Positions 2,645 through 63,246 of a DNA stretch of 64,000 bases are shown piece after piece. Position numbers and translations under genes: made by a program. The DNA comes from a bacterium (GTDB lineage Bacteria; SAR324; JACQKK01): the NCBI GenBank assembly GCA_965205845.1, contig CBDBIG010000003.1, forward strand, positions 313,117 through 377,116, given 5' to 3'. Within the stretch, counting starts at the first letter, position 1, and each line of letters begins with the position of its first letter. The notes under the pieces are model-generated. The model did no database searches and had not been told where the DNA came from. It saw only the letters and a list, made by a program, of their open reading frames with translations.

Positions 2645-3679
2645 ATGCTAAGAAAAATGATGCGCGTTTTTTATCATCCAAGCGAGCAGCACTACCGCCC
2701 ATCGCGCACCTGGTTTCATGGACGCATCGAGCCCAATCCCGAGGTTGTTGCGCGCACCCAAAGCATTTTAAATGCACTGGAACAACACCCCAATTTTGCG
2801 TTTGAAGAACCCCCTAACCTTGATCCCACAAAAGACCTGCCTTTACTGGCAGAGGTGCACGATGAAGGCTACCTAAACACCTTAAAAACGGTGTGCGAGA
2901 GGCTGGACCCAGAGGAAGAGTTCTTTCCTTTTATGGCACGCCCCGACAAGGCCTTGTTGAAGGTGGCCTACCCCCGTGTGCGCATGGGCTATTATGCGGT
3001 CGATGGTTCCATGCCCTTATTAACCCGCTCTTTTACCACAGCCTTAGGAGCAGCCGCCAGCGCTTTGGCGGGTGCCAAGGCAGTGTTATCGGGTGAAAAA
3101 GCCGTATACAGTTTGTGCCGTCCCCCGGGGCATCATGCCAGCAGGGCATCGTACAGTGGGTATTGTCTGCTAAACAATGCCGCGTTGGCCGCGCAGCGTT
3201 TGTCTAAGCAGGGCAAAACCGCCATCCTCGACGTTGATTTTCATCATGGTAACGGAGTACAGGAAATTTTTTACGCACGTGAGGATGTGCTGTACGCCTC
3301 CTTACATGGTGATCCACGCCAAGCTTACCCTTTTATTTTGGGCGATAAAACCGAAACGGGAAACGGGGCAGGCTTGGGTTGCAACCATAATTTTCCCCTA
3401 CCCAAAGGCTGCAATTGGTCTTTGTATGCTCCCGCCTTAGAGGATGCCCTTGAGCGAATTGCCGCGTTTTCTCCCGACTTTCTAGTGGTAGGCCTTGGCT
3501 TTGATACCTATGCCAAAGATCCCATTGGTTTTTTTAAACTTGAGGTGTTGGATTTCGCTGCCATTGGAGCAAGGCTGGCGCAACTCCAATGCCCCACCTT
3601 GGTGGTCCAAGAGGGGGGCTATTGTGCACCTGAATTGGGGGATTTGGCGGTGGCTTTTTTTAGGGGCTTCGGGCATTAA
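2645..3679 (+). CDS. Histone deacetylase / acetoin utilization AcuC-family amidohydrolase (arginase-deacetylase fold)
   Basis: Contains DVDFHHGNGVQEIFY (the HDAC D-x-D-x-HHG-x-G motif) and GFDTYAKDP. The ORF-track start at 2288 runs through the tandem repeat, so the start was placed at the internal ATG at 2645 (MLRKMMRVFYHP). Confidence 0.8.
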   Translation: MLRKMMRVFYHPSEQHYRPSRTWFHGRIEPNPEVVARTQSILNALEQHPNFAFEEPPNLDPTKDLPLLAEVHDEGYLNTLKTVCERLDPEEEFFPFMARPDKALLKVAYPRVRMGYYAVDGSMPLLTRSFTTALGAAASALAGAKAVLSGEKAVYSLCRPPGHHASRASYSGYCLLNNAALAAQRLSKQGKTAILDVDFHHGNGVQEIFYAREDVLYASLHGDPRQAYPFILGDKTETGNGAGLGCNHNFPLPKGCNWSLYAPALEDALERIAAFSPDFLVVGLGFDTYAKDPIGFFKLEVLDFAAIGARLAQLQCPTLVVQEGGYCAPELGDLAVAFFRGFGH

Positions 3680-3752
3680 GGGGTTTGGATTTGGGGGGAT
3701 TTAGCGATGGCTTTTTTTAGGGGCTTCGGGCAAGGGGTTTGGATTTGGGGGG
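3643..3752. repeat. ~55-bp tandem duplication (x2) spanning the 3' end and stop codon of the HDAC gene
   Basis: GGCGGTGGCTTTTTTTAGGGGCTTCGGGCATTAAGGGGTTTGGATTTGGGGGG is followed by GCGATGGCTTTTTTTAGGGGCTTCGGGCAAGGGGTTTGGATTTGGGGGGGG. The first copy encodes the C-terminus AVAFFRGFGH and the stop codon. Confidence 0.85.
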
Positions 3753-4182
3753 GGTGGAGGCTTATTTTGGCTGCCCTTGGCACCCAACCTGATGCACTTT
3801 GCGTTCTTGATGGCTGGTTTTGCGCTCTTGGCAATGGGGGGGCCGCCATAGGCTTGGTTTTTTTTTTAGATGCCCCGCACGCACATAGAAGGCGGGCTTG
3901 CATCCCCAAGTTTTGATAGAACTTTTGCTGGCGGGTCCCCAGCACAAAGTGCCATGCTTTTATAAGCCTCATCTTGCGTGCTAATCGGCCTTTTAGTAGG
4001 GGTCTACGCCCGTTCTGTGCCAATTCTGCGCCAATTGCTATAAGCCAATGCCTTGTGCCAACTCCAACCCCACGTTACACGCAAAACAACCTGGGGCTGC
4101 CATACCTTTGCCCTCGCACTTTGGTTTTGTGGGCATTTGCTGGCAATTATGGGCTTTGCTAAAGTGCGACGTTGTGTTAGAA

Positions 4183-11443: not shown

Positions 11444-12160
11444 TTAGCGGGTGCCGTCTATTTCGAGGGGTTTAATTAGGGTGTCATCCAAGCGTTGTGC
11501 GTGGTGCTCGTCTTGCGGGGCTGCATCATCCTCCCCAACTTCCTCGTTGTCATCCAAGCGTTGTGCGTGGTGCTCGTCTTGCGGGGCTGCATCATCCTCC
11601 CCAACTTCCTCGTGACTAAAGAGCCCATCTTGGGGCAGTTCTGGGATATCTAAAGCCTCAAGGGTGGGGAGTTCTTTTAAGGTGCTAATGCCAAACAGGC
11701 TAAAAAATTTACCTGCCACCCCGTATAGCAAAGGGCGTCCGGGGCCTTCATCGCGCCCTGTGATGCGTACCAGGCGTTTTTCTAACAAGCCACGCAAACC
11801 GTTTGAAGAATCGACTCCACGTAAATGCTCTACTTCTGCGCGGCTGACGGGCTGACGGTAGGCAATGATGGATAAAATTTCCAACGCCGCAGGGGAAAGT
11901 TTGGTGGGTTTGTAACGGCTCAGCTGGCTTAGCCATGGTTTAAACATGGGCAGTGTGCGCATTTGGTAGGCTTCGCCCACTTTGGCAATATGAAACGCGT
12001 GCTCGGCCGTGCTGTATTGTTGGTTTAGGGTTTTAACCATGGAAGCAATACGTAAAGTACCATGCGGTTTAAGCAGGCGGTTTAATGCATGGCTCGAAAC
12101 AGGGTCGGCGCTGGAAAACAAAACCGCCTCCAAGACCCTCTTTGCATCGTTGTCTTCCAT
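11444..12160 (-). CDS. scpB: Segregation and condensation protein B
   Basis: N-terminal LEAVLFSSADPVS, winged-helix region SRAEVEHLRGVDSSNGLRGLLEKRLVRITGRDEGPGRPLLYGV, and an acidic C-terminal tail. Confidence 0.8.
   Translation of the reverse strand: MEDNDAKRVLEAVLFSSADPVSSHALNRLLKPHGTLRIASMVKTLNQQYSTAEHAFHIAKVGEAYQMRTLPMFKPWLSQLSRYKPTKLSPAALEILSIIAYRQPVSRAEVEHLRGVDSSNGLRGLLEKRLVRITGRDEGPGRPLLYGVAGKFFSLFGISTLKELPTLEALDIPELPQDGLFSHEEVGEDDAAPQDEHHAQRLDDNEEVGEDDAAPQDEHHAQRLDDTLIKPLEIDGTR
11483..11614. repeat. In-frame 66-bp tandem duplication inside the scpB 3' coding region (22-aa acidic repeat EEVGEDDAAPQDEHHAQRLDD x2)
   Basis: Identical 66-bp units at 11483-11548 and 11549-11614. 66 = 22 codons, so the reading frame is preserved. 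Confidence 0.9.
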
Positions 12161-21078: not shown

Positions 21079-21329
21079 TGTCACCAAACCCTCTCGGTGA
21101 AAGGAAACGAAAAGTCCCCCAAGCACCCAAAAAACCGCCGCAGCCTTCCTTGTGGAGCAAAGGCGTGCGATTTATGGCGGTGGGTGTTGAGGTAGCCGTT
21201 GCGATTTTGCTAAGCTTATGGGTGGGTCAGTGGCTTGACATCCGCCTTGGTAGCGAGCCTTGGCTATTGTTGGGATGCATGTTGGTTGGGATGATTGCCG
21301 CGCTCCGTATTTTAATGCGTTTGCGCTAG
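21075..21329 (+). CDS. atpZ: Small 2-TM membrane protein in the atpZ/AtpI-like position at the head of the F0 ATP synthase operon
   Basis: 84 aa. It has a basic N-terminus and two hydrophobic helices (VGVEVAVAILLSLWVGQWL / LLLGCMLVGMIAALRIL). It is immediately upstream of atpI-atpB-atpE. Its 3' end is the first unit of the 87-bp array. Confidence 0.6.
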   Translation: MMSPNPLGERKRKVPQAPKKPPQPSLWSKGVRFMAVGVEVAVAILLSLWVGQWLDIRLGSEPWLLLGCMLVGMIAALRILMRLR

Positions 21330-21790
21330 GCCTGCGGTTTGCACACAGCGCAGCTATTGGGATGCGTGTTGGTTGGGATGATTGCCGCGCTCCGTATTTT
21401 AATGCGTTTGCGCTAGGCCTGCGGTTTGCACACAGCGCAGCTATTGGGATGCGTGTTGGTTGGGATGATTGCCGTGCCCCGTATTTTAATGCGTTTGCGC
21501 TAGGCCTGCGGTTTGCACACAGCGCAGCTATTGGGATGCGTGTTGGTTAGGATGGTGGCCGCGCTCCGTATTTTAATGCGTTTGCGCTAGGCCTGCGGTT
21601 TGCACACAGCGCAGCTATTGGGATGCGTGTTGGTTAGGATGGTGGCCGCGCTCCGTATTTTAATGCGTTTGCGCTAGGCCTGCGGTTTGCACACAGCGCA
21701 GCTATTGGGATGCGTGTTGGTTGGGATGGTGGCCGCGCTCCGTATTTTAATGCGTTTGCGCTAGGCCTGCGGTTTGCACACAGCGCAGCT
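21265..21790. repeat. 87-bp tandem repeat x6 that begins inside the atpZ 3' end; every unit re-creates the atpZ C-terminal codons (…GMIAALRILMRLR) and the TAG stop
   Basis: Units start at 21281, 21368, 21455, 21542, 21629 and 21716 with exact 87-bp period (87 = 29 codons). Units differ by a few SNPs (GGTTGGGATGATTGCC vs GGTTAGGATGGTGGCC). The ORF track shows the repeated peptide AIGMRVGWDDCRAPYFNAFALGLRFAHSA in another frame. Confidence 0.95.
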
Positions 21791-27300: not shown

Positions 27301-27466
27301 AGAAATTTTCACATCTGCCAGCCCCGGCAATATGGGGGTGCTTTGCGTAAAAGGCATCCATGGTTGGCCTTGTCTACGTGGGGTGACTTTGCGTAAAGAG
27401 GCCCTGTGGTTGGGCTTTACTGCTCTATGGCAGTGCTCAACGCGCTGGGGCTGACTTGCCACAAGC

Positions 27467-27658
27467 AACGCTGAGGTGCACATTGTTGTAAACCGTGTTT
27501 GAAAGAGGGGCGCTCGATTGAAACCATGCTGTTTGACCGCGAACAACTCCCTTGCATTAAGCAACGCTGAGGTGCACATTGTTGTAAACCGTGTTTGAAA
27601 GAGGGGCGCTCGATTGAAACCATGCTGTTTGACCGCGAACAACTCCCTTGCATTGGCG
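27467..27658. repeat. 96-bp tandem duplication (x2) covering the RBS, start codon and first 11 codons of rimM
   Basis: Units at 27467-27562 and 27563-27658. Copy 1 contains ATGCTGTTTGACCGCGAACAACTCCCTTGCATT and runs into TGA, giving the decoy ORF MLFDREQLPCIKQR. Copy 2 is the real rimM start at 27622. Confidence 0.9.
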
Positions 27659-29925: not shown

Positions 29926-30510
29926 ATGTCAAATATTCCTCACGGAAATGTGTATCGATTCCAAAACTGGACACCCACCATTGCCCCCAGTGCTTATATC
30001 GCCCCCGGGGCACATGTTATAGGCCAAGTGCACCTTGCAGCCAAAGTACACATTTTGTTCAATGTCGTGCTGCGCGGTGACAATGCAGCCATTACTGTGG
30101 GTGAGGGTTCAAATATACAAGACAACTCCACCATTCATGTAGAGCCAGCTCGGGAAGATGGCACACCCCAAGCCCCTTGCACCATTGGTAAAAACGTAAC
30201 CATTGGGCACAACTGCCTTGTGCACGGTGCAACCATTGAGGACGAGGTGCTGATTGGCATGGGTGCAGTGGTGATGAATTTTGCCAAAATTGGCCGTGGT
30301 TGCATTGTGGGCGCAGGTGCGATTGTGCTAGAACATACCGTGGCACCGCCTTTTTCTTTGCTGGTGGGAGCACCTGCTATAATTAAAAAAACCTATCCCT
30401 CAAAAGAAGCCCTTGCGGTAACCGTTCGTGCAGCGCAAGGCTATCAGCAACGCATTGAGGACTTTAAAACCACCTTACGCCAACAAAACATGGGGCATGG
30501 TCAAACTTAA
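29926..30510 (+). CDS. Gamma-class carbonic anhydrase family / left-handed beta-helix hexapeptide-repeat protein
   Basis: IAPSAYIAPGAHVIGQVHLAAKVHILFNVVLRGDN...IGHNCLVHGATIEDEVLIGMGAVV: hexapeptide repeats with the His pattern of gamma-CA/YrdA-like proteins. Confidence 0.7.
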   Translation: MSNIPHGNVYRFQNWTPTIAPSAYIAPGAHVIGQVHLAAKVHILFNVVLRGDNAAITVGEGSNIQDNSTIHVEPAREDGTPQAPCTIGKNVTIGHNCLVHGATIEDEVLIGMGAVVMNFAKIGRGCIVGAGAIVLEHTVAPPFSLLVGAPAIIKKTYPSKEALAVTVRAAQGYQQRIEDFKTTLRQQNMGHGQT

Positions 30511-30559
30511 CGCTCGCCGTCTGTACACGTACGCTCCCCTTGCGCATGATAAAGGCCCT

Positions 30560-30990
30560 CAACGACAAGAACCATTTTACAACCACACCCCAGCAAGGTC
30601 GCTAAACCAGCATCGCCCCATGCAAAGGTGGAACGCACAAAGCACGGCGACAAGAACCATTTTACAACCACACCGCAGCAAGGTCGCTAAACCAGCATGA
30701 CCCCATGCAAAGGTGGAACGCACAAAGCACGGCGACAAAAACCATTTTACAACCACACCCCAGCAAGGTCGCTAAACCAGCATCGCCCCATGCAAAGGTG
30801 GAACGCACAAAGCACGGCGACAAAAACCATTTTACAACCACACCCCAGCAAGGTCGCTAAACCAGCATCGCCCCATGCAAAGGTGGAACGCACAAAAGCA
30901 CGGCGACAAAAACCATTTTACAACCACACCCCAGCAAGGTCGCTAAACCAGCATCGCCCCATGCAAAGGTGGAACGCACAAAAGCACAGC
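30560..30990. repeat. 85/86-bp tandem repeat x5 between the gamma-CA-like gene and nfeD
   Basis: Marker ACCATTTTACAACCACACC occurs at 30571, 30656, 30741, 30826 and 30912. The units encode nothing recognisable. Confidence 0.9.
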
Positions 30991-31014
30991 AATTTTTCAA
31001 AAAACACAGGGTAG

Positions 31015-31491
31015 GTGGGTGAATCGATGGAATGGTTTTATTGGATTTCTTGGGCGCAAATCTGGCTAATTGTGGGCCTTTTTTTGATTGGGATGGATCT
31101 CTTTATCCCATCTGGTGGGTTGCTGGCAGCCACGGGTTTAACGGTACTTTCTGCTGCGCTCTTAGCGTGGTTTCAGGTAGCATGGTGGATATATTTGGTC
31201 GTACTGCCTCCCATGGCAGCTCTTTTCGTTGCGCTGTGCCTTTGGGTATTGGCCAAGGGGGGTGGTTTGCTTGAACGCTGGATACTACCCGAAAAGATTA
31301 AAACCAACATGGATGCCCTGCCAGGCCGCGAGGGGCTGGTAAGACAGCTGCGTGAAGATGGATTGGTTTATGTTGAGGTGCAAGGAGATCGCTGGCTGAG
31401 CACGGTCGAAGGCAAGGCAAGGGTAGAAGTGGGGACACGCGTTCGCATTGTACGCGTGCAAGAAGGTCGCTTGGTGGTAAGCATCTGTTGA
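31015..31491 (+). CDS. NfeD-family membrane protein (stomatin-operon partner)
   Basis: Three N-terminal TM helices, then a C-terminal OB-fold-like soluble domain (VQGDRWLSTVEGKARVEVGTRVRIVRVQEGRLVV). Located immediately upstream of an SPFH gene. Confidence 0.75.
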   Translation: MGESMEWFYWISWAQIWLIVGLFLIGMDLFIPSGGLLAATGLTVLSAALLAWFQVAWWIYLVVLPPMAALFVALCLWVLAKGGGLLERWILPEKIKTNMDALPGREGLVRQLREDGLVYVEVQGDRWLSTVEGKARVEVGTRVRIVRVQEGRLVVSIC

Positions 31492-31574
31492 GGTGTTTTT
31501 TGAATTTTAGGGAACGCACACCGGCGTACTTATGGACGTCATTTTTTTTGAAAGGATAAGTAGGTACAACAAAG

Positions 31575-32426
31575 ATGTTTTTTTATCGCATCCCCCAAGC
31601 CCATGTGATGGTGGTTGAACGCTTGGGTAAATTTCACCGCATTTGCCAGCCTGGTTTAAGGGTACTTTTGCCCATACTCGATTACCCCAAAGAAATGCCC
31701 GAATGGGAAGGGCGTGGAGTACGCTTAGTGGGCAGCCGTCCTATTTTGGTGGAGCTGGCAGAGCAATCTTTAGGGACAGAACCACGTGCGAGCATTACCC
31801 GCGACAACGTGCAGCTGCGTGTTGACACGCTTATTTATTGGCAGGTTACCGATGTGATGCGTGCCGTGTATGAAGTAGATGTGCTGCCCAATGCCATTTT
31901 GGATCTTACCCTGACCACCTTGCGCTCGGTAATTGGCAGCATGAACATGGATGAGGCCATTAGCAACCGCCTAAAAATTAACGACGCTGTGCAAACCGAG
32001 CTTCAAGGTGCGGTGGAAAAATGGGGGGTGCGGGTCAACCGTGTGGAAATTCAAGAACTGCATGCCTCGGATGAAGCCTCTGCGGCAATGCTGAAACAAA
32101 TGACCGCTGAGCGTGAAAAACGCGCAGCCGTTACCGAAGCCGAAGGGAAAAAAGCCGCCGCTATTTTAGAGGCAGAAGGCTATCGCGAGGCGGTGCTCAT
32201 CCGTTCAAAGGCGGATGCGGATGCCATGAAGGAGTTTGCCCGTGGGGAAGCAGAATTTCTAAAACCACTCCACCAAGTGCTGGGAGAAAAGAACGGAATG
32301 AATTTTGCTCTCGCTGCAAAATACCTCCGCACCCTTGGCAGCATGGATGAAACAGCCAAGGTGTTTTTGCCCTTAAACCTGGCTGAAGCCATTGATACGG
32401 TTTTACGCGGCACGGGCAAAAAATAA
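31575..32426 (+). CDS. SPFH/band-7 (stomatin-like) protein
   Basis: VVERLGKFHRICQPGLRVLLPILD, a band-7 core, and a Glu/Ala-rich coiled-coil tail. Canonical nfeD-SPFH pair. Confidence 0.85.
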   Translation: MFFYRIPQAHVMVVERLGKFHRICQPGLRVLLPILDYPKEMPEWEGRGVRLVGSRPILVELAEQSLGTEPRASITRDNVQLRVDTLIYWQVTDVMRAVYEVDVLPNAILDLTLTTLRSVIGSMNMDEAISNRLKINDAVQTELQGAVEKWGVRVNRVEIQELHASDEASAAMLKQMTAEREKRAAVTEAEGKKAAAILEAEGYREAVLIRSKADADAMKEFARGEAEFLKPLHQVLGEKNGMNFALAAKYLRTLGSMDETAKVFLPLNLAEAIDTVLRGTGKK

Positions 32427-32831
32427 GGGCATTTGCAAAAGTGGTTGCTTTTAAGCAATCTTGCAAGCCTCATTCAAGCATTGTTATAGACGCGGCACGG
32501 GCAAAAAATAAGGGCATTTGCAAAAGCAGTTGCTTTTAAGCAATCTTGCAAACCTCATTCAAGCATTGTTATAGACGCGGCACGGGCAAAAAATAAGGGC
32601 ATTTGCAAAAGCAGTTGCTTTTAAGCAATCTTGCAAGCCTCATTCAAGCATTGTTATAGACGCGGCACGGGCAAAAAATAAGGGCATTTGCAAAAGCAGT
32701 TGCTTTTAAGCAATCTTGCAAGCCTCATTCAAGCATTGTTATAGACGCGGCACGGGCAAAAAATAAGGGCATTTGCAAAAGCAGTTGCTTTTAAGCAATC
32801 TTGCAAACCTCATTCAAGCATTGAATAGAAA
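32407..32831. repeat. 85-bp tandem repeat x5 that starts inside the SPFH gene 3' end (includes the TAA stop) and fills the whole intergenic space up to the next start codon
   Basis: GCGGCACGGGCAAAAAATAAGGGC marker at 32407, 32492, 32577, 32662 and 32747 with exact 85-bp period. The first unit encodes …LRGTGKK-stop. Confidence 0.95.
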
Positions 32832-33425
32832 GTGAAAGCGCGCACGATGGCCGATCATTTTGAAACCCCCAAAAACATGCGCATCCCCAACGTGATAGAG
32901 AAAACCCTCAGCGTCCAGCAAAAACATGCCCAAAAGGCTGTACTCGATAGCCCGCGCGGGCATGTGGTGGGGCCGTTTTGGGCATGGCTTTATAGCCCCA
33001 AAATGTGCATCCATGCTCAAGCAATGGGGGCCTATGTGCGCTTTGAAACCAGCTTGCCTAAACCCTTAAACGAGTTAGCCATTTTGCTCACAGGTCGGCG
33101 TTGGCGTTCTCAATTTGAATTTTTTGCCCACGCCAAACTGGGCATAGCTGCAGGTTTGGGCCGTGATTTGATTGAAGCCTTGCGCCAAGGTAACCGCCCT
33201 GAAGGCATGAGCGATGACGAAGTGCTGGTGTATGATGCCGTGGAAACCTTGCTTGCCACCAGCCGCATGCCTGATAAGCTTTATCAGCAGGTCGAAACCC
33301 GCTTTGGCGTGCAAGGCACCGTCGATTTGGTGGCTGCGGTAGGCTATTACACCATGGTATGCCTCACCTTAAACACTTTTCGCATTTTGCCTGAGGAGGC
33401 GGATATGCCATTTGAAGAGAAGTAA
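32832..33425 (+). CDS. Carboxymuconolactone decarboxylase (CMD/AhpD-like) family protein
   Basis: VDLVAAVGYYTMVCLTLNTF, a typical CMD-family helical core. Start possibly the MADHFE Met at 32847. Confidence 0.6.
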   Translation: MKARTMADHFETPKNMRIPNVIEKTLSVQQKHAQKAVLDSPRGHVVGPFWAWLYSPKMCIHAQAMGAYVRFETSLPKPLNELAILLTGRRWRSQFEFFAHAKLGIAAGLGRDLIEALRQGNRPEGMSDDEVLVYDAVETLLATSRMPDKLYQQVETRFGVQGTVDLVAAVGYYTMVCLTLNTFRILPEEADMPFEEK

Positions 33426-33502: not shown

Positions 33503-34270
33503 TTGCACGCCCAGGTAAAGTCTATGCAAAAATTTGCCCGCGATGTACCTGCCAACGTGGGTGTTACCATTCCCCAAATGTCCAGCGCAAGCAATCTTTG
33601 TGCATGTGCTGACCAAAGTATTGACTTGGCTGTCACATCCCCGCCCTATTTAAACGCCGTTGACTATCCCCGAACCCATCAGCTTGAAACTTACTGGTTA
33701 GGCCTCGCTTCTGGTTCTTTGAGGGATTTAAAAGCGCAGCACATCGGTACTGAAGTTGTTTCTTCACGGGATTGCAAACGCTTACACGCGACGGGTTACG
33801 ATTGCGCGGATGCTGTTATTGCAAGCATCTATCAAAAAGACCCGCGCAGAGCCTACCATTGCCTACAAGTACTTGGTAGATATGGAAGAGCTATTTAAAA
33901 GAAGTAAATCGGGTGTTAAAACCACAGGGAAGGTATGTGATTGCGATTGGCTCTAACAAGGTTAGGGGGCATACCTTTGAATCTTGGAGACATTTTATCG
34001 ACATCGCACAAAGCGTTGGTTACAGGGTAAACCATCGGTTCGAGTCGGAGATTATTAACCACTTTATCAAAGTACCTCGCGATGAGCGCATTGAGGAAGA
34101 TCATGTGTTGGTATTGTAAAAAGGAAAGAAAATAAAGGCCAACGTGCCGCTGCCACTGGGTTTGCAAACGAAAGCAGGCTTCTTGGGGCCTTATTATCAA
34201 GGGGTTACAATGCTTTTAGGGTAGACCTACCTCTATCTTCTTATGATATTATCATGGAATTGGATCCACG
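33503..34270 (+). pseudogene. Beta-class (N4-cytosine/N6-adenine) DNA methyltransferase, disrupted by at least two frameshifts
   Basis: Frame 1 gives CADQSIDLAVTSPPYLNAVDY (motif IV, the D/S-PPY type). Frame 2 gives YKYLVDMEELFKRSK. Frame 3 gives RVLKPQGRYVIAIG. A further frame reads AAATGFANESRLLGALLSRGYNAFRVDL, resembling the FxGSGTT...GR.FIGIE SAM-binding region. The order IV->I matches the beta class. No intact ORF spans these pieces. Confidence 0.6.
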
Positions 34271-35709: not shown

Positions 35710-36594
35710 ATGGTGACACCCCCCCCTTGCCTTACCAACGCAGATACACCCCAAAAAACGCGTCAACTGCTGGGTGAGCGGCTGCAAACGTTTGTACCCA
35801 GGCCCCCACCCTATCCGCTGATTATGGGCATTATCAACGTCACCCCAAACTCGTTTAGCGATGGTGGCGACCTACCCCAGCTCGAGGATGTGCTCCGTCG
35901 GGCAGGCACCTTAAAGGGCGAAGGGGCAGATATTTTAGATGTAGGTGGGGCGTCCTCACATCCCAATGCCCCCCATACCCCAATTAAAGTGGAATTACAG
36001 CGCGTTGTGCCCGTGGTGAAAACCCTACACCAGCAAGGATTGGGACCTATTTCAATCGATACCCAACACCCTGCTGTCGCGCAGCAATGCCTGCACGCAG
36101 GGGCGCACCTAATCAACGATGTAAGCGGCCTTTGCACCACCCAAACCCCCAACGCTGATATGGCCGCGATCGCTGCTCAATTTGGAGCGCCGCTGGTGAT
36201 CACCTGCAACCATTTGAACCAACCCCCTCCCCCCAACACGCCTTTGTTAGAAGGGATGCTCCATTTTTTTAAGCAGCGCATTACCGCCGCCAAAAAGCAC
36301 GGGGCGACCCAACTTATTTTGGATCCTGGGTATGGTTTTGGCAAAAGCCTGCCCCAAAACTTGCAAACTTTGCGCGAACTTTCAAGTTTAATCCCTTTGG
36401 GTTACCCTATTTTAACCTGCACTTCGCGCAAAGGTTCCCTTGGCAAGTTAAGCGCAGAACCCAAACCAAAGGAACGCCTAGGTGCCGGTTTGGCAAGTGC
36501 ATTCTTTGCGCTGAAACAAGGGGCTAGCATTGTGCGTACCCATGATGTAAAACCCTTGCACCAGTTCGTTCATCTATGGCACACTTTGCGGTGA
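35710..36594 (+). CDS. folP: Dihydropteroate synthase
   Basis: IMGIINVTPNSFSDGGD (the DHPS N-terminal motif), DILDVGG, and GASIVRTHDV (C-terminal motif). The start is uncertain (ORF-track ATG at 35653; a later ATG at 35710 was used). Confidence 0.85.
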   Translation: MVTPPPCLTNADTPQKTRQLLGERLQTFVPRPPPYPLIMGIINVTPNSFSDGGDLPQLEDVLRRAGTLKGEGADILDVGGASSHPNAPHTPIKVELQRVVPVVKTLHQQGLGPISIDTQHPAVAQQCLHAGAHLINDVSGLCTTQTPNADMAAIAAQFGAPLVITCNHLNQPPPPNTPLLEGMLHFFKQRITAAKKHGATQLILDPGYGFGKSLPQNLQTLRELSSLIPLGYPILTCTSRKGSLGKLSAEPKPKERLGAGLASAFFALKQGASIVRTHDVKPLHQFVHLWHTLR

Positions 36595-37240
36595 CCCGCG
36601 CACAACATAGGCTAGGCAACACCTTATATAAATTTTTTTGTTTTTATGGCGTAAAAAAATTAAAGCATCGTTATTGCGCTTTTTGTATGTGATGTTTTGC
36701 GCAAGGCTTGGGCGTTGGCGGCTTGGCCACTGTACGCGCGTTTTCTCACATCATTTCAAAATACAGTCAATTAAGAAGCACGCAAGCCTGCTTGCCGCCG
36801 ATATTTCCTTGCGCAAAACACGCCTTTTTACGGCAGCCGAAAAGCGTGAGGTAAAACGCTTGCAACAAGCAAAGGCGCGCGTTGTGCGGACCCATGATGC
36901 TAAAACCCTTGCACCAGTTCGTTCATCTATGGAACCCCTTACGATGACCCACGCACAATTTGGCTATGAGCAGGACCTTAAATGAACTTTTTTTGGTTTT
37001 TATGGCGTAAAGAAATCAAAGCCTCGTTATTGCGCTTTTTGTTTGTGATGTTTTGCGCAGGCTTGGGCGTTGGCGGTTTAGCCACTGTACGCGCGTTTTC
37101 TCACACCATTCAAAATACGGTCAATCAAGAAGCACGCAGCCTGCTTGCCGCCGATATTTCCTTGCGCAAAACGCGCCCTTTTACGGCAGCCGAAAAGCGT
37201 GAGGTAAAACGCTTGCAACAAGCAGGGGCGCGCGTTGTGC
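36530..37240. repeat. ~355-bp tandem duplication spanning the folP 3' end, the intergenic spacer and the first ~85 codons of the downstream FtsX-permease gene
   Basis: Unit 1 is about 36530-36885 and unit 2 about 36886-37240. GTGCG[GT]ACCCATGATG...CACCAGTTCGTTCATCTATGG..., TTTTTATGGCGTAAA[AG]AAATCAAAG...CGCTTTTTGT[AT]TGTGATGTTTTGCGCA...GCCACTGTACGCGCGTTTTCTCACA...CGCTTGCAACAAGCA. About 93% identity. The junction lies at the short homology TTGTGC. Confidence 0.9.
36638..36985 (+). pseudogene. Chimeric ORF created by the 355-bp duplication: N-terminal 80 aa of the FtsX-permease fused to a diverged copy of the FolP C-terminus
   Basis: MFLWRKKIKASLLRFLYVMFCARLG...LLAADISLRKTRLFTAAEKREVKRLQQAKARVVRTHDAKTLAPV. 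Compare the real gene MNFFWFLWRKEIKASLLRFLFVMFCAGLG...LLAADISLRKTRPFTAAEKREVKRLQQAGARVVQ and the FolP end VRTHDVKPLHQFVHLWHTLR. Confidence 0.6.
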
Positions 37241-43497: not shown

Positions 43498-46400
43498 TTT
43501 AAAAAAATGCCTTCTTGGGTATTTTCTGAGTCACCAAGATGGCTTTTTTTGGGTGTGCCCAGGGGGCCTTCTTTGGCTTTTATGCGGCAAAAAGCCGTAA
43601 AATCGCAATACTCGCAGGCGTCGTCTTGAGGATCGACCTGCGCTGCCCCTCGAGAAAATTGTTTCACGCTTTTTTCAAATGCCTGTTGCCAACGTGCCAA
43701 CAGTGCTGGCTGTGTAGGCCATGGGTTTTTACCCCAGGTGCTTACTTTGTTGCCAAACAAACTGTCTTTGAATGTGACCTCACTCAAGCCAATCATCTCC
43801 ATGCCTTTGCGGTGCAGTTTGGCAAAAGCAAGTGCCATCAGGGGTTTTTGCTGCTGCGCTGGCTGTTGTGCTTGTTTTTGGAGCCAGGCCAAGGCATAAA
43901 GGGGCAGTTGGGGTTGGGTAATGCGTTCCTCGTTCTGCCATGAATGAAGGGGCAGTGTTTCTCCCGTTTTATAGTCCAGCAACACGGCAGCCTCAACCGC
44001 TTCTTGTGCATTCGATTCAAGGCTGCATTCTACGTAGTCCAAGCGGTCGAGACGTAGGCTTAAGGGCAAGCCAACCACGCTAAAGTCCAGTTTTTCCTCT
44101 TGCTTGCCTACACAAAAATCGCCCCTTTCCATGGCTTCTTTTTCCAACCATGCTGTGAGCAAACGGGTGATACGTTTGCCTTCCAAGCGTGCGGCGGCGG
44201 GAGAAAGCATCACGGTTTTTTTGCTTGCCTGTGCTTCGCTCGGTTTAGCTTGTGCTGCGGGGTCTGCGGGGTCTGCGGGGTCTGCGGGGTCTGCGGGGTC
44301 TGCGGGGTCTGCGGGGTCTGCGGGGTCTGCGGGGTCTGCGGGGTTGCTTACGCGAATAACACGCCCAATGGTGCGTTCCAAGGCTTGCTTAAAAGCCAAA
44401 GGTTTGGCAAGGAGGGCTCGTAATTCGCTTTGGCTTTGGGCCGCATCGTGCCAAAAAATTTCCAACACCCAGTGCACAATATTGCCTCGGGTCAGTGCGT
44501 CCAAACCTGTTTGCGCAAGGGTTTTTTTTTGGAGCATCAGGCGGTGCCTTGCAAAACTGCGAAAAGGGCAGAGCGCAATATCTTGGAGCAAACTTGCACC
44601 ACCCTTTAGGGTAGACACATCAATGGGCGGCCCGTTGGAATCGGGGCATGACTGCCAAGGCGAATGGCTTTGGGCATGGTCCAACATGGCCATCCATGCC
44701 GTGTGGGGGGGTGTCGGCATGGCACCTTTGGTGACGATAGGAGGGGGGGTGATGGTTTGCAGCAAGGAGCTGGGTCTGCGCTCCTCTTCGCTATCTAACT
44801 GCTGGGTTGCGTGGCTAATAACCACCTGCTTGGCGCTATGCAACAAGCGCGTCAGGCTCATTTTTCCCAGTGCAAGTTCACGGGCAGCACTTGAGCGTGG
44901 CATCTGATGGTCGCGTTGAAAAGCAAGGGGTAGCAAAGCATGCGGCATGGGCGGGGGAGGCCAGTGTTGATCATCAAAGCCCAACACCCATAGGTGGTCA
45001 AAAAAGAGACCGCTAGCCTGCCATGGTCCTAAAATATGGAGGCTTGCTTCGAATCCCTCGGCTTGAAAGGGGGTTTCTGCAACGATCCGTTGTAACCATG
45101 CAAACGCTTGGTTTGCAGACCATAGGTTCGTCGTTTGTGTATTTTGGATTCCATCGAGGGTGGAAAATACCTGCAACGCCTTTAAAAATCTCTTTTTTGC
45201 CTGTGCCTCGGTACTGTTAAGACCGCCCTCGGTTTGGCTCCCGTTTTTGGAAAAACCCAAGGTCCAACCCGCTGTGTGCAACAGGTTTAAAAAAAAATGC
45301 GCCCATTGCGAGGGCATTTTGTGCGTTGTTTGGGCCAATTGCCACGCATTTTTCCAAGCTTGCATTGGTTGGCACCATGTCTGCAGTTCTACCCCCGAAC
45401 GTTGCGCTTGTTGCAGCACATGGCGCACTGAAAACGGCTCAACCCAGGTGGCCAAAAAACGATGCGCAAACCGTGCACGCGGAATGCGTTCGGCGGTGGC
45501 ACCCACAATAAATGGGCTTGTAACCCACTGCACAAAATGCTTGGCACTGCGTGCAACCAAAGGGGATTGCAACAAGAGCAAGGCCGCTTGGACCAACCCT
45601 TGCTCGCTGAGTGGTGGTGCATAGGAAAGGTTAAAGGGCTTGGCTGCACCTGCCTCGGTTGCATGGGTAATCAGGGTTTTGATGGGGGATAAATACTGTG
45701 TACAGACCGTGTGCACCCGTTGCCATTCTTCTTGCAGATTGGGGTGGATAATCGCAATTTTTTGCTTTGGGTTTTTTTGGGATAAGTCACGTGCCCAAAG
45801 CAGTGCTCCCTCTAATTCCTTTTGCGAGTTTGAATACGGATGCACGGTAGGAGGGTTTGCCAACGGCGGTGGTGCTTGCCTTTGGGGTTGTGGCTCGGCT
45901 TGGGCGCGGGGTAGGGCAAGCCAAGTGCTAGCTGGCACGTTCACGGGGACCCACTCCACCACCACTTGTAGAGTACGCAATGCATCAAACAACCGCTCTT
46001 GCTGCGGGGTCAAGACATCAAACCCGCAGAGCACCATGTTGGTGGGCAACATAAACCCAAAGCCTTGGGTACTACCTTGTTCTCCAAGGTAATGTTCCCT
46101 TTCCAAAGCATGCACCACCAAACTGGCTACCTGTTCTTGACTACACCACCCTTGGGTATGCATTGCTTGCCCAAAAGCCAATGCCCAATTGACAAAAACC
46201 TTGGCTTCCAATTGCAACGTATGGGCAAAGGCTTCCTTTGCATGGGGCTGTAAAAACGCTCCTATGGTGGTATTCCAGCCCACAACATGCCACTCGCATA
46301 GCAAACCCCATGCTTGCTGTGCCAAGGCAGCGGCTTTGGCTGGTGTTAAGGGCTTATGAGTCGTCGTTGGGTTATGCAGGGGTGTTGTGCGGGAATTACG

Positions 46401-46691: not shown

Positions 46692-46846
46692 CTGTTTTGT
46701 TCCATTGTTTTAAAAAGAGCTGCTCTTTTTTGCACACGTATCCCCATCTTTAAAATCTCACAAACGAAGTACAAGTGCCATGAGAACGATGGCTTGTTAT
46801 CGGCATAACCCTTGTGGCTATCGCAATTTAAATCGGTCTGATAGGG

Positions 46847-47062
46847 CACAAAGCCAAACGCACCTTGATTCTCGCGCTCAAGGATTTTCTTTTCTGCATG
46901 CCAGCGTCCAAGTTTTATCCCATTTTTCCCTGCGCTGCTTCCTTGTGCACAAAGCCAAACGCACCTTGATTCTCGCGCTCAGGGATTTTCTTTTCTGCAT
47001 GCCAGCGTCCAAATTTTGTCCCATTTTTCCCTGCTTCGGGTTCCTTGTGCACAAAGCCAAAC
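46847..47062. repeat. 101-bp tandem duplication (x2, bounded by a 13-bp direct repeat CACAAAGCCAAAC) covering the thyX 3' end, stop codon and downstream
   Basis: Units at 46861-46960 and 46961-47062 have a few SNPs and one small indel. This makes the ThyX C-terminus FGFVHKEPEAGK...GAFGFVHKEAAQGKMG-stop with FGFVHKE twice. 101 is not a multiple of 3, so the copies are read in different frames. Confidence 0.9.
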
Positions 47063-48591
47063 AAGGGTGCAAATAAAGGATGCGCTTTCAGTACGCATTG
47101 ATACATCTGCTGGGCAATCCCTCTGTATACCAAATGGCCTTGGGGCATCGTGCGTAACTCGGTTAACCAAATCAGTGCCCTTAAATTGAGATGCACCTGC
47201 CAGCGTACACGATAAGCCATGGGGAGCACGTAGGCGGCTTGCTCGGCAGAAAAATGCTGGCTCAGTTGCTGGTGCGCCTCGGCGGCTTGCAAAATCGCTT
47301 GGCAAAAAGGTTTTTCTAAGTTTGCCGCTTGAATATCTTCTGGGATCGTATAACCAAGGCTGATTCCAAGGGGTTGCCGTTGCTGGGTTAGGGTGCGATG
47401 GCGGTGCAGGTCGCGAAACGCACCAAAATCCGCCTGCAATTCGAAGGTGTAAAACACCAGTTCGGTGGCTCGGGGGGGCTTGTGGCGGCGGTTTTTGCGC
47501 GCTTTGCCCAGGCTTTCGATGGCTCTTTGGCGGGCGGCGGCGTCTAAGTCTGCCACGCTACGCTGTACGCCATCCCAGGGGCAAGACTGGTCCTCGTACA
47601 ACCACGCCGTAAGCATTTTTTCAACCGCTTGTCCCTCGCTTTCACAGTGCAACAGGCGTACGCATTCTCCACCGTTTTCCGCAATCCCCTCAAAGGCTTG
47701 GGCGACCGAAGCAGGGGGAAATACCTGTGCGAGGGTTTTTTGACGCGCTTTAAGCAGGGTTTGATGGTAGGTTTGTTGCGCTTTGGTGTTGGGGTGCTCC
47801 CTGGCGGAGCGCGTAACGAAAGCGGGAATCACGCCTTCCAGTTCGCATTGCATGGCATTGGCAAGGGCTTGCATTTCAGGCAAAGACTGGCTGCGTGTTT
47901 TGGCAATAAGGCTTTGAAAAAAACGCCCGTTACCATAAAGCCCCATGTTGGTGTGGGTGCAAATGGGAAGCAACCCCCGCAAAACATCCAAGGCGTGTGC
48001 GTGCAATGCTCTTTCCCATGGAATTTTCTTTTGTCCTTGGGGTCGCGGGCTGGCTTGCCTTAAAAATTGCTGTAAAGGGCCAAGCAAATCTCGATAACTG
48101 TCAAACAAAGTGCGCACGGCTTTTAAAAACAACCCTTGCTGGGGTGACGCCATAATTTGAGGGTCTTGATAAAAACGATAGTCACCATTGAAGAGGTCAT
48201 CAAAGCGCACATAACGCGTCGATTTTTCGAGGAATGAGCCCCCAATGCGCGAAGCCTGCAAATGGTTGGCAGCAAGCATCGAAATGCCCTCCAAGGCCAA
48301 GTGTGCACCGCCCAATTCTCCCACCGAATCATCGCCATAGCCATCGAGCACACGTTTGTAAAATGCATGCGCTTTTTTCTCATCGGCTTCCAAAAGGGTC
48401 TCCTCGCCCGCCAAAAATTCGCGCTCCAAGAGGCTGCGCAAATCGAGATTTGAACGCGAATAACGCGAAAACAATGCACCCTTCACCACCTCTGGCAAGG
48501 CTTTTAACGCAAAGATAGGCCTTTGTGTATTGGTTACAAAGCGTGCTACGGTGGTGGGATTAAAGGGCGTTAAAGGGGAATGCTTGTTCAT
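46915..48591 (-). CDS. thyX: FAD-dependent thymidylate synthase ThyX, long tandem-domain form (558 aa)
   Basis: C-half: ELVFYTFELQADFGAFRDLHRHRTLTQQRQ (the ThyX RHR motif) and RVRWQVHLNLRALIWLTELR (ThyX C-terminal N-x-R-x-L helix). N-half: SRIGGSFLEKSTRYVRF (S-x3-S-x-RY half of the ThyX signature) and ALDVLRGLLPICTHTNMGLYGNGRFFQSLIAKTRSQ. Two ThyX-like domains are fused. Confidence 0.65.
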   Translation of the reverse strand: MNKHSPLTPFNPTTVARFVTNTQRPIFALKALPEVVKGALFSRYSRSNLDLRSLLEREFLAGEETLLEADEKKAHAFYKRVLDGYGDDSVGELGGAHLALEGISMLAANHLQASRIGGSFLEKSTRYVRFDDLFNGDYRFYQDPQIMASPQQGLFLKAVRTLFDSYRDLLGPLQQFLRQASPRPQGQKKIPWERALHAHALDVLRGLLPICTHTNMGLYGNGRFFQSLIAKTRSQSLPEMQALANAMQCELEGVIPAFVTRSAREHPNTKAQQTYHQTLLKARQKTLAQVFPPASVAQAFEGIAENGGECVRLLHCESEGQAVEKMLTAWLYEDQSCPWDGVQRSVADLDAAARQRAIESLGKARKNRRHKPPRATELVFYTFELQADFGAFRDLHRHRTLTQQRQPLGISLGYTIPEDIQAANLEKPFCQAILQAAEAHQQLSQHFSAEQAAYVLPMAYRVRWQVHLNLRALIWLTELRTMPQGHLVYRGIAQQMYQCVLKAHPLFAPLFGFVHKEPEAGKNGTKFGRWHAEKKIPERENQGAFGFVHKEAAQGKMG

Positions 48592-59179: not shown

Positions 59180-60871
59180 TTACAGGTCAAGCACCGTTTG
59201 GGTCATTTCATTCACCGTGTTTAAAAACTTTGCAGAAGCCTCAAAACCCCGTTGATGCTGCACCATGGCGGCCAACTCCTCATCGGTATTCACCCCCGAA
59301 ACCTCGTTACGCAGTTTTTGAAACTGGTCGACGATTAAGCGGTGGTTTTCTGCCTCTTGTTGTACGCGATCAATCTCTAAGCCAAGGTCAATCAAACTGC
59401 CATTGTAGTATTCATCCAAGGTGCTGGTTTGCTGGTTTAGCAGGTTCGAAAACTGGAGTTGATGAATTCCCAAAGCGACAGAATTGTCCCCTGGCTTAAG
59501 GCGTTGGCCCGTGGTAACCTGTTGGGGGTTGTTGACAATATCTGGGTTGAGGCTAAAATTTTTGGCCCCTCCGCTGCTGTGAAAAAAACCATTTAGCCCC
59601 AAAGCCACGCTAAAATCGCTTTCATCGGGTCCCAGCACAAAATGCTCCCCGGGGGCTGCTTGCAACTGCACCCGCCCTTGGGAATCAATCTCGGCCATTA
59701 GGTGGCCACCTGCCAGTTGGTTAATCCGGGTTACCACATCTTCGACGCTGTCTTTGCCCGCGTGTACGGGAATTTCGAGGGTATTGCGGATGGTTTCGCC
59801 ATCGGGGCTGGTAAATTGGACGCGAAACATGCCATCACGCAAAAAGGGAGCGGGGTTATCCTGCCATAAATGTCCCATCTCTGCTGCCCCTTGCAGGCTT
59901 TCAAAACGATGGAGCAGGCCCGTGCCTGGGTTGTGCAAACGGTTTACCTCATACATTAGGGTGTCCGCCAGGGTGTTGAGTTCATCGAGCGCTTTGGAAG
60001 CCGTTTTATCACGCACCTCCACCATGTGGTGCAATGCGCCGCTTTTAAGCGTATAGGTTAAATTGTGTGGCGGGCCAGAGGATTGCAGCCCGTGAATTTG
60101 CATGCTGGCTGCGCTTTTAAATTCTGCGGGTGCAAGATGCAGCCTTGATGATACCCCGCCGTTAACCAGAGGAAATCCGTTGCCAATGCTTACATTGAGC
60201 ATCTTTTTATTATCCTCGACCCATTTCACCTCCACAATGCGGGAAAGTTCTTTGAGGGCTTTTTCGCGCGCATCGCGCAGATCGTTGGCCTCACCACGCA
60301 ACCGATCTACCCGTGAAATTTGCCTGTTGAGTTCGGCAATTTTGTTCGCCTTTTGGTTGACCTCATGAATGCTTTGGCTTAAGCGTTCATTAAAATCTCC
60401 GCGCAAGGTTTCAATGCTGTTGTGCAAACCGCCCATGCGCTCTGCCAAAGCCTCGCCTTTTTGCAACACATCGCGCCGATGAATTTCTTGCTCGGGGTTG
60501 TTGGCCAAACCCGACCACGAACCCCAAAATGCGTTTAAAGCCTCGCGCAGGCCATTGCCCTCAATCTCGGCAAACAAGCTTTCCAAAGCACGCAAGCCTT
60601 GTTGGCGTACCCCAAGGCCAGCATCGGTTGATTGCTCTGCAATCAGCCGTTTGTTCACAAAATTGTCGCGTACCTGGGCTACCCGCTCCACATCCACCCC
60701 GCCACCTAACAAATTGCGGGTAGGGTGCTTGGCGGCGTATTCCACCCTTTGGCGTGAGTAGTTTTCATCTTCCGCATTGGCGATGTTATGCCCAGCCGTT
60801 TGCATGCCCGACTGCTGCACTTGCATGGCGCGTGCGCCAAGGCTTAGCTGAGAAAACAATGAACTCGTCAT
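59180..60871 (-). CDS. flgK: Flagellar hook-associated protein 1 (HAP1)
   Basis: MTSSLFSQLSLGARAMQVQQSGMQTAGHNIANAEDENYSRQRVE (FlgK N-terminal rod/hook-family motif), and the C-terminal ...QRGFEASAKFLNTVNEMTQTVLDL. Confidence 0.88.
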   Translation of the reverse strand: MTSSLFSQLSLGARAMQVQQSGMQTAGHNIANAEDENYSRQRVEYAAKHPTRNLLGGGVDVERVAQVRDNFVNKRLIAEQSTDAGLGVRQQGLRALESLFAEIEGNGLREALNAFWGSWSGLANNPEQEIHRRDVLQKGEALAERMGGLHNSIETLRGDFNERLSQSIHEVNQKANKIAELNRQISRVDRLRGEANDLRDAREKALKELSRIVEVKWVEDNKKMLNVSIGNGFPLVNGGVSSRLHLAPAEFKSAASMQIHGLQSSGPPHNLTYTLKSGALHHMVEVRDKTASKALDELNTLADTLMYEVNRLHNPGTGLLHRFESLQGAAEMGHLWQDNPAPFLRDGMFRVQFTSPDGETIRNTLEIPVHAGKDSVEDVVTRINQLAGGHLMAEIDSQGRVQLQAAPGEHFVLGPDESDFSVALGLNGFFHSSGGAKNFSLNPDIVNNPQQVTTGQRLKPGDNSVALGIHQLQFSNLLNQQTSTLDEYYNGSLIDLGLEIDRVQQEAENHRLIVDQFQKLRNEVSGVNTDEELAAMVQHQRGFEASAKFLNTVNEMTQTVLDL

Positions 60872-61077: not shown

Positions 61078-61112
61078 GCAAAAAGGGCGCAAAAAGGGCG
61101 CAAAAAGGCGCA
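61078..61112. repeat. 11-bp repeat GCAAAAAGGGC x3 (phased A5 tracts) about 210-240 bp upstream of flgK
   Basis: GCAAAAAGGGCGCAAAAAGGGCGCAAAAAGGCGCA read directly. Same unit as the array at 62955-63020. Confidence 0.9.
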
Positions 61113-62455: not shown

Positions 62456-62878
62456 TTAAGGGATCACGGGTGCCCCTTTACTGGGTGCAAGGGCCGCTTT
62501 TTCAGTATAAGGATTTTTGCTGCCTTGATGAACTGCGGCGCGCTCTGCTAGGGGCTCGTATTTTTTAAGCGATTGCAGTAAATTTTCCGTAAAACCGAGA
62601 CCCCCGTTTTCACCAATTAAGCGCACGTACTCCGTGTCAAGCATTTCGGTAAACCATTCTTGGCTGGTGGTTTTGCCAAATAGATCCGACTTTGGGGTGG
62701 CTTTGCGCATCGAGCGCACCATCATCTCGGTCAGCATATTCTCAAATTCTTGCGCTGCCTTGCGTAACTTCACCATATCTTGCGCTTTGTTGGCTTCTGC
62801 TGCTGCACTTTGGGTTTGTGCAAGCTGGTGTTGCTTGCGTGGCAGGCTTGCGTAGTCTGGAATAATATTGAGTGCCAT
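62456..62878 (-). CDS. flgJ: Flagellar rod-binding protein FlgJ (N-terminal Rod_binding domain only; no muramidase domain)
   Basis: AAQEFENMLTEMMVRSMRKATPKSDLFGKTTSQEWFTEMLDTEYVRLIGENGGLGFTENLLQSLKK matches the Rod_binding family consensus. Start set at MALNIIPDY (62878). The ORF-track start is 62926. Confidence 0.75.
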   Translation of the reverse strand: MALNIIPDYASLPRKQHQLAQTQSAAAEANKAQDMVKLRKAAQEFENMLTEMMVRSMRKATPKSDLFGKTTSQEWFTEMLDTEYVRLIGENGGLGFTENLLQSLKKYEPLAERAAVHQGSKNPYTEKAALAPSKGAPVIP

Positions 62879-62954
62879 TTTTTTTAAAAACCTAACCCTT
62901 CGTTGTAAAAGCAGGTGGCAAGTCAAGGGAGACTGACTATCAGCCCACTATAAT

Positions 62955-63020
62955 GCAAGAAGGGTGCAAGAAGGGTGCAAAAAGGGCGCAAAAAGGGCGC
63001 AAAAAGGGCGCAAAAAGGGC
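62955..63020. repeat. 11-bp repeat x6 (GCAAGAAGGGT x2 + GCAAAAAGGGC x4), helically phased A-tracts immediately upstream of flgJ-flgM
   Basis: TGCAAGAAGGGTGCAAGAAGGGTGCAAAAAGGGCGCAAAAAGGGCGCAAAAAGGGCGCAAAAAGGGCACAAGG read directly. The 11-bp period is about one helical turn. Confidence 0.9.
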
Positions 63021-63246
63021 ACAAGGCAAAGCATTAAAAAGAGAGAGCATGTCAGACTAGGCACTTTACAAGCCTTGGCTCTAAACCCTTGCAGTGCGAA
63101 GTGGGGGTAGGCCCGTATGACAGCAAGGAGTGTGGCGTAAACCCCAAGGGTCTCCTCTTGCGTGGCTGAGTGATAAGGGGAAGGAAAAAGGGTTTTTCCT
63201 TTAAAAAAAAACGGCTGATGGCTTTTTTAAAAAAGGGTGTTCTTTC

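Follow-up and report, generated by a model that had tools for sequence, protein, structure and literature searches.

A five-unit 85-bp tandem array behind an SPFH gene, probably a young local duplication, in a genomic window dense in such arrays

In the 64-kb stretch of DNA analysed here (the window), the spacer between a gene for an SPFH/Band 7 protein and a gene of the carboxymuconolactone decarboxylase (CMD) family is occupied by five tandem copies of an 85-bp segment. This array is probably a young local tandem duplication of the VNTR or minisatellite type, without a dedicated function. Taken by itself it is ordinary; the notable part is the density at which such arrays occur in the window, which is seen also in a relative. 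The anatomy of the array, the density of arrays, the dissimilarity of their units, their avoidance of ORF interiors and the presence of the same trait in that relative are direct observations, whereas the mechanism of duplication and its neutrality are what we infer.

TRF delimited the array at 32405-32823, with a period of 85, 4.9 copies, 98% matches and 0 indels, and by eye a degenerate similarity runs on to about 32829, for a full span of 32405-32829 and about five units (Table 1). A 28-mer taken from the unit has exactly five occurrences at 85-nt spacing (0 expected from 100 shuffles), and an alignment of the five units with their flanks showed that neither flank is part of the repeat. Together, these three analyses confirmed the 85-bp x 5 array that a preliminary description of this DNA had reported after the SPFH gene. 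They also confirmed that it begins in the last SPFH codons, the ORF ending in ...LRGTGKK-TAA with its stop codon (32424-32426) inside unit 1. Other parts of that description had to be adjusted. In its phase the units start at 32407, 32492, 32577, 32662 and 32747, each opening with GCGGCACGGGCAAAAAATAAGGGC, whereas the repeat already starts 2 nt earlier, at 32405. The array does occupy the spacer as claimed, but it does not reach the start of the next gene, from which a unique 17-nt linker separates it. The GTG at 32832, where the array had been said to end, is merely the first possible start of the downstream ORF; this gene most likely starts at ATG 32847, the database protein being the 192-aa product from that codon and a 63%-identical orthologue starting at the equivalent Met.

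Each 85-nt unit is made of 22 nt of the ORF (A CGC GGC ACG GGC AAA AAA TAA) followed by 63 nt of former spacer, so that the description of the array as five copies of the gene's own end holds for 22 of the 85 nt in every unit, but not for the other 63 nt, which are duplicated ancestral spacer. The unit length of 85 is not divisible by 3, so that no frame is maintained from one unit to the next, and the four extra copies of RGTGKK-stop downstream of the real stop codon are untranslated. Only three variant sites were found among the five copies. Positions 32442-32443 read TG in unit 1 and CA in the other units, and the site at 32467/32552/32637/32722/32807 reads G/A/G/G/A in units 1-5. The four internal junctions read TTATAGAC; the last unit ends instead in AATAGA (32824-32829), which is probably the ancestral right flank. 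The present SPFH-CMD spacer of 420 nt thus corresponds to 340 nt of added repeat and an ancestral spacer of about 80 nt. The two genes that it separates are co-oriented, both on the + strand, and unit 1 includes the stop codon of the first. A motif in the left flank, CATTGATA (32390-32397), is similar to the unit end CATTGTTATA and was excluded from the repeat, as it lies at a distance of 89 and not 85 nt, out of register.

Table 1. Positions of the tandem arrays of the window, of the five units of the SPFH-CMD array and of the genes around it (arrays are given as period in bp x copy number)
Feature	Position	Strand	Remarks
54 x 2 array	start 2368		
57 x 2 array	3637-3754		contains the stop codon of an HDAC-like gene
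56 x 3 array	start 8663		
66 x 2 array	11482-11613		perfect 66-bp (22-aa) duplication, in frame, in the C-terminal tail of ScpB beyond the domain
87 x 6 array	21270-21790		44 nt before atpI, with which the atp F0 cluster begins
62 x 3 array	start 23674		
240 x 2 array	start 24645		
96 x 2 array	27463-27654		perfect duplication containing the rimM start codon (ATG 27622)
85 x 5.0 sister array	30563-30987	+	unrelated unit; fills the spacer between a gamma-carbonic-anhydrase-like gene and nfeD
nfeD-like gene	31015-31491	+	Pfam PF01957 NfeD, E 8e-7, 29.6 bits (cut-off 29.1)
SPFH/Band 7 (stomatin/paraslipin-like) gene	31575-32426	+	Pfam PF01145 Band_7, E 3e-34; stop TAA 32424-32426
85 x 5 array	32405-32829		SPFH-CMD spacer
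Unit 1	32405-32489	+	opens with the genuine 3' end of the SPFH gene, TAA included (22 nt); edge variant TG at 32442-32443
Unit 2	32490-32574	+	untranslated gene-end copy (32490-32511) and spacer copy; A at 32552
Unit 3	32575-32659	+	identical to unit 4
Unit 4	32660-32744	+	identical to unit 3
Unit 5	32745-32829	+	tail AATAGA at 32824-32829
Unique 17-nt linker	32830-32846	+	between the array and the downstream start codon
CMD-family gene (carboxymuconolactone decarboxylase/AhpD-like)	32847-33425	+	recognised through homologues only
353 x 2 array	36530-37240		90% identity; contains the folP stop and a macB-like start
101 x 2 array	46846-47062		3' end of thyX; period 101/102 bp, x 2.15

The identity of the neighbouring genes was as first proposed. 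An NfeD-domain gene (PF01957) lies directly upstream of the SPFH gene (PF01145) on the same strand, and this adjacency is found also in the relative (L081/L082) that holds the closest SPFH relative found, at 46% identity. The assignment of the downstream neighbour to the CMD family is supported only indirectly, through homologues: the gene itself was not matched in searches of Pfam, NCBIfam and PDB sequences, and its homologues at E <= 1e-43 (values of 1e-43 and weaker are also cited) carry PF02627 or the JGI name 4-carboxymuconolactone decarboxylase. The SPFH product corresponds exactly to a 283-aa database protein; the exact SPFH and CMD proteins are each singletons, located on the same single contig of 877,621 bp, and exact-protein look-ups returned no independent contig with either of them. 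Just downstream of the CMD gene, two short ORFs (33503-33898 and 33913-34119) in different frames and without Pfam match may be a frameshifted or degraded gene.

No recognisable signal was found in the unit itself. A consensus scan for intrinsic terminators (a G+C-rich stem-loop followed by a U tract) found no terminator-like site in 32405-32846, and a scan for sigma-70-like promoters (-35 and -10 hexamers at 16-18 nt spacing), a consensus that may not fit the promoters of this host, found 0 sites in 30400-33000. A weak promoter look-alike, TTGCAA-N18-TATAGA preceded by TG, is present at the four internal junctions; it departs from the consensus, and the last unit, which adjoins the CMD gene, lacks it. 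From the stop codon onwards, each unit can also form a 12-bp imperfect, A/U-rich hairpin, which no U tail follows. In RNA folding, neither single units nor the complete array did better than shuffled sequences (z-scores of -0.1 to -1.5), and Rfam gave no match in the array at the gathering threshold or at E <= 1. With neither a terminator nor a promoter consensus found, the array may be part of a 3'UTR or of a 5' leader.

Eleven further arrays accompany this one in the window. With identical TRF settings for the window and the comparison loci (period of at least 40, at least 90% match), the 12 arrays amount to about 188 per Mb, against 2 arrays in 1.37 Mb of 80 other bacterial loci (1.5 per Mb), a difference of about 130-fold; this baseline consists of distant loci from the profile scan with the SPFH alignment, with at most 43% identity and without the source genome among them. 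Four of the arrays, the SPFH one included, contain the stop codon of a gene, and two contain a start codon. The special character that the preliminary description had implied for the SPFH array is not borne out in view of these other arrays, three with a stop codon and two with a start codon, the 353 x 2 array having both; its overlap with a stop codon is what is expected of a random duplication that is tolerated because the gene stays intact, and most likely not a special device. The 12 units are mutually dissimilar, and none of them recurs in dispersed form in the window, as judged by blastn and by local alignments set against shuffles. Each array thus stems from its own local duplication rather than from the insertion of a repeat family. 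The arrays are close to integer multiples of their period in length, most of them with an excess of 0-5 nt and the one at 32405 with about 1 nt, which implies that the initial duplications involved little or no microhomology at the junction. Identities between copies range from 100% to 90%, and the rpsP-rimM spacer contains a decayed 46-bp repeat of 72% identity; the spread of identities indicates a spread of ages and a continuing process. Only two of the 12 arrays lie fully inside an ORF, compared with 6.65 expected under random placement (P = 0.006). This avoidance of ORF interiors suggests selection against gene-disrupting duplications and also argues against assembly artefacts. The 87 bp x 6 array (21270-21790) has the highest copy number, and the variants common to its neighbouring copies indicate stepwise growth.

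Several of these duplications overlap the ends of other genes. In thyX (minus strand, 46915-48591), the gene-proximal copy has no stop codon and the ORF extends by about 34 codons before it meets the stop in copy two, such that the C-terminus reads ...FGFVHKEPEAGKNGT...FGFVHKEAAQGKMG before the stop, through one copy into the second. The 96 x 2 array (27463-27654) left copy 1 with a pseudo-start and an upstream ORF of about 14 codons before rimM. The 353 x 2 array (36530-37240) takes in the 3'-terminal ~65 nt of folP and the initial ~250 nt of a macB/FtsX-like gene, and leaves a pseudo-5' fragment, seen as the ORF at 36638-36985; it is older, since its copies are 90% identical. Repeats with shorter units also exist in the window. 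One is an in-frame coding repeat of 9 bp x 10 (CTGCGGGGT) at 44255-44344, inside an addB-like nuclease gene. Another is an 11-bp unit, GCAAAAAGGGC, arrayed x3.3 at 61078-61112 and x6.4 at 62955-63024 in the flagellar region, in both cases upstream of minus-strand genes (flgK, 59180-60871, and an ORF at 62456-62926). This unit, which forms A-tracts phased at one helical turn and, unlike those of the long arrays, is found at two loci, possibly makes up curved-DNA promoter elements.

The genes of the window are chromosomal housekeeping genes (trp genes, leuB, atp F0 genes, ffh-rpsP-rimM, addAB, thyX and flagellar genes). The database proteins nearest to Ffh are only ~50% identical to it, with SAR324 and Lambdaproteobacteria as the named ones among them, and the host is an uncultured, deep-branching bacterium without a close sequenced relative. 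Its ffh-rpsP and rpsP-rimM spacers (~410 and ~320 nt, respectively) are 5-10 times longer than the 74-90 nt and 23-43 nt found in the relatives L086 and L087. Coding density in the window is ~79% even with maximal ORFs, which is low for a bacterium, and many spacers measure 300-800 nt. Several ORFs (for example, HDAC-like, CcmB-like and TrpD) have long N-terminal extensions before the Pfam domain that are probably over-called starts.

An 876-bp ENA contig from an independent assembly (L085) encodes the 63%-identical CMD orthologue and bears three arrays: one of 14 x 4.9 that ends 28 nt before the ATG, one of 44 x 2.1 that contains the stop codon of the CMD orthologue, and one of 52 x 2.4. Both ends of the contig lie within arrays, as expected of a short-read assembly, which suggests that such genomes fragment badly in short-read assemblies; breaks of this kind may be part of the reason for the near-invisibility of the lineage in short-read metagenomes. 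The trait is absent from the more distant relatives (L081-L084 and L086-L088), except for one 45 x 2 array and one 115 x 2.1 array. Searches for the unit 28-mer in JGI metagenome contigs gave 0 matches, JGI-inclusive protein searches revealed no close relative, and nothing relevant was found in the literature on SAR324 tandem repeats or on the BioSample of L085.

The array would have originated when illegitimate recombination or template switching, involving ~1 nt of microhomology, duplicated an 85-bp segment that included the SPFH stop codon and almost all of the spacer, the left breakpoint lying 22 nt inside the SPFH 3' end and the right one ~18-24 nt upstream of the CMD start codon. Replication slippage or unequal homologous exchange would then have brought the two copies to five, and partial homogenisation of the array would have left the edge units as the most divergent. 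A left breakpoint in the last codons would have done no damage, as the gene retains its native final codons and stop in the first copy. With unit 1 keeping the end of the ORF and the last unit keeping the native junction to the CMD start, both flanking genes stay intact, and for this reason the array would be tolerated. The consequences would be confined to a five-fold longer untranslated spacer, grown from ~80 to 420 nt, and to the fivefold presence of any weak signals that it contained. The array would thus be one case of a lineage-wide excess of duplications from which those disrupting coding sequences are removed by selection.

A regulatory role is an alternative that we regard as unlikely. 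As an amplifier or rheostat acting in cis, the array would stack SPFH terminators and/or CMD promoters, and slippage in copy number would tune CMD expression or uncouple it from nfeD-SPFH. Its location, filling the spacer and ending 17 nt before the ATG, is suited to such a function, as are the hairpin that every unit carries from the stop codon and the TTGCAA-N18-(TG)TATAGA found at the internal junctions. Nevertheless, neither promoters nor terminators were recognised in the array by the consensus scans, shuffled sequences fold equally well, and the promoter look-alike is missing precisely from the unit next to the CMD gene. Moreover, the 11 other arrays, with their unrelated units, are found at all kinds of boundaries, gene ends included, which fits a mutational process better than design. 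Two unexplained coincidences nonetheless lend a regulatory role some plausibility and count against the neutral reading. The CMD orthologue of L085 also has an upstream array (14 x 4.9, 28 nt before the ATG), unrelated to the one described here. In addition, two unrelated 85 x 5 arrays, identical in period and copy number, flank the nfeD-SPFH pair, a coincidence for which we found no mechanism. It is very unlikely that the array, or its copy number, resulted from mis-assembly or polishing of a single 85-bp segment, even if the exact proteins are known from one contig only and JGI metagenome contigs gave no match to the unit. The three variant sites form a non-trivial pattern among the copies, with the edge units most divergent, and the arrays avoid ORF interiors, which artefacts would not. 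The identities from 100% to 90%, together with the decayed 72% repeat, amount to a spread of ages, and the independent short-read contig of the relative has similar arrays and breaks inside them.

We consider it extremely improbable that a dispersed intergenic repeat family (MIRU-like, MITE, REP or BOX) inserted at this place. According to PMC3184786 (after Supply et al. 1997), MIRU are 40-100 bp units, often in tandem, located in spacers between co-oriented genes, co-transcribed with them and with ends overlapping the adjacent genes; they form one dispersed family, possibly MITE-like, with ~40-50 loci. The array shares with them the tandem units of this size in a spacer between co-oriented genes and the overlap with the stop codon of the neighbour. 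By contrast, the arrays of the 64-kb window have mutually unrelated units, each of which comes from the gene end and spacer at its own locus, and no dispersed family was found there. The SPFH unit does not recur elsewhere in the window and resembles none of the units of the other 11 arrays, its first 22 nt are the end of the local gene and it is devoid of terminal inverted repeats. On the basis of the blastn comparison of all units against the window and of the local alignments against shuffles, we rejected a MIRU or MITE family as their source. It is just as improbable that the units are binding sites, of the iteron or centromere kind, or copies of a structured RNA: TTGC/GCAA half-palindromes recur in the unit, as binding sites might, but no Rfam match and no significant fold were detected, the context is one of chromosomal housekeeping genes, and many unrelated arrays lie nearby.

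The probable nature of the array as a tandem duplication of VNTR type finds parallels in several known systems. Bacterial VNTR or minisatellite loci, such as the MLVA loci of Wolbachia (PMC3625123), likewise have near-identical head-to-tail units of local sequence in intergenic positions, and presumably expand and contract, like the array, by slippage or unequal exchange. With 85 bp x 4.9-5.0 and 98% identity, the array falls in the ~10-100+ bp range of such tandem repeats, whose defining property is copy-number polymorphism; the difference resides in the density, ~188 arrays per Mb of window against 1.5 per Mb in the comparison loci. Microhomology-mediated tandem duplications that rely on several nt of microhomology have been described in Schizosaccharomyces pombe (10.1101/2020.03.03.972455). 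They are also local, tandem and reversible and provide a substrate for further expansion, but they concern a different organism and the junctions of the window arrays show mostly 0-5 nt, and ~1 nt in the SPFH array. The contingency-locus promoter repeats of Neisseria and Haemophilus are short units that act through promoter spacing or reading frame. In Beggiatoaceae, intergenic TAACTGA repeats use the same motif genome-wide (PMC4679880). Both resemble the array in being intergenic, just upstream of genes, where copy number could alter expression; however, their units are of 1-8 nt, whereas the one described here has 85 nt and is specific to its locus.

A broader reading, which we advance only tentatively and judge rather unlikely as a whole, is that the window reflects an unusual mutational regime of a deep-branching lineage, in which microhomology-poor tandem duplications of 50-350 bp would arise or persist at gene boundaries at more than 100 times the usual bacterial density. 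Under such a regime, part of the arrays, among them that preceding the CMD gene, which has an array in both orthologues, would operate as expression rheostats, and gene ends would be remodelled by stop loss with read-through, by new upstream ORFs and by multiplied promoter or terminator modules. The density of arrays at gene boundaries in the window, together with that in the relative, offers a natural experiment on how duplication shapes spacers, gene termini and regulatory regions and, if copy number varies in the population, the arrays would be high-resolution strain markers.
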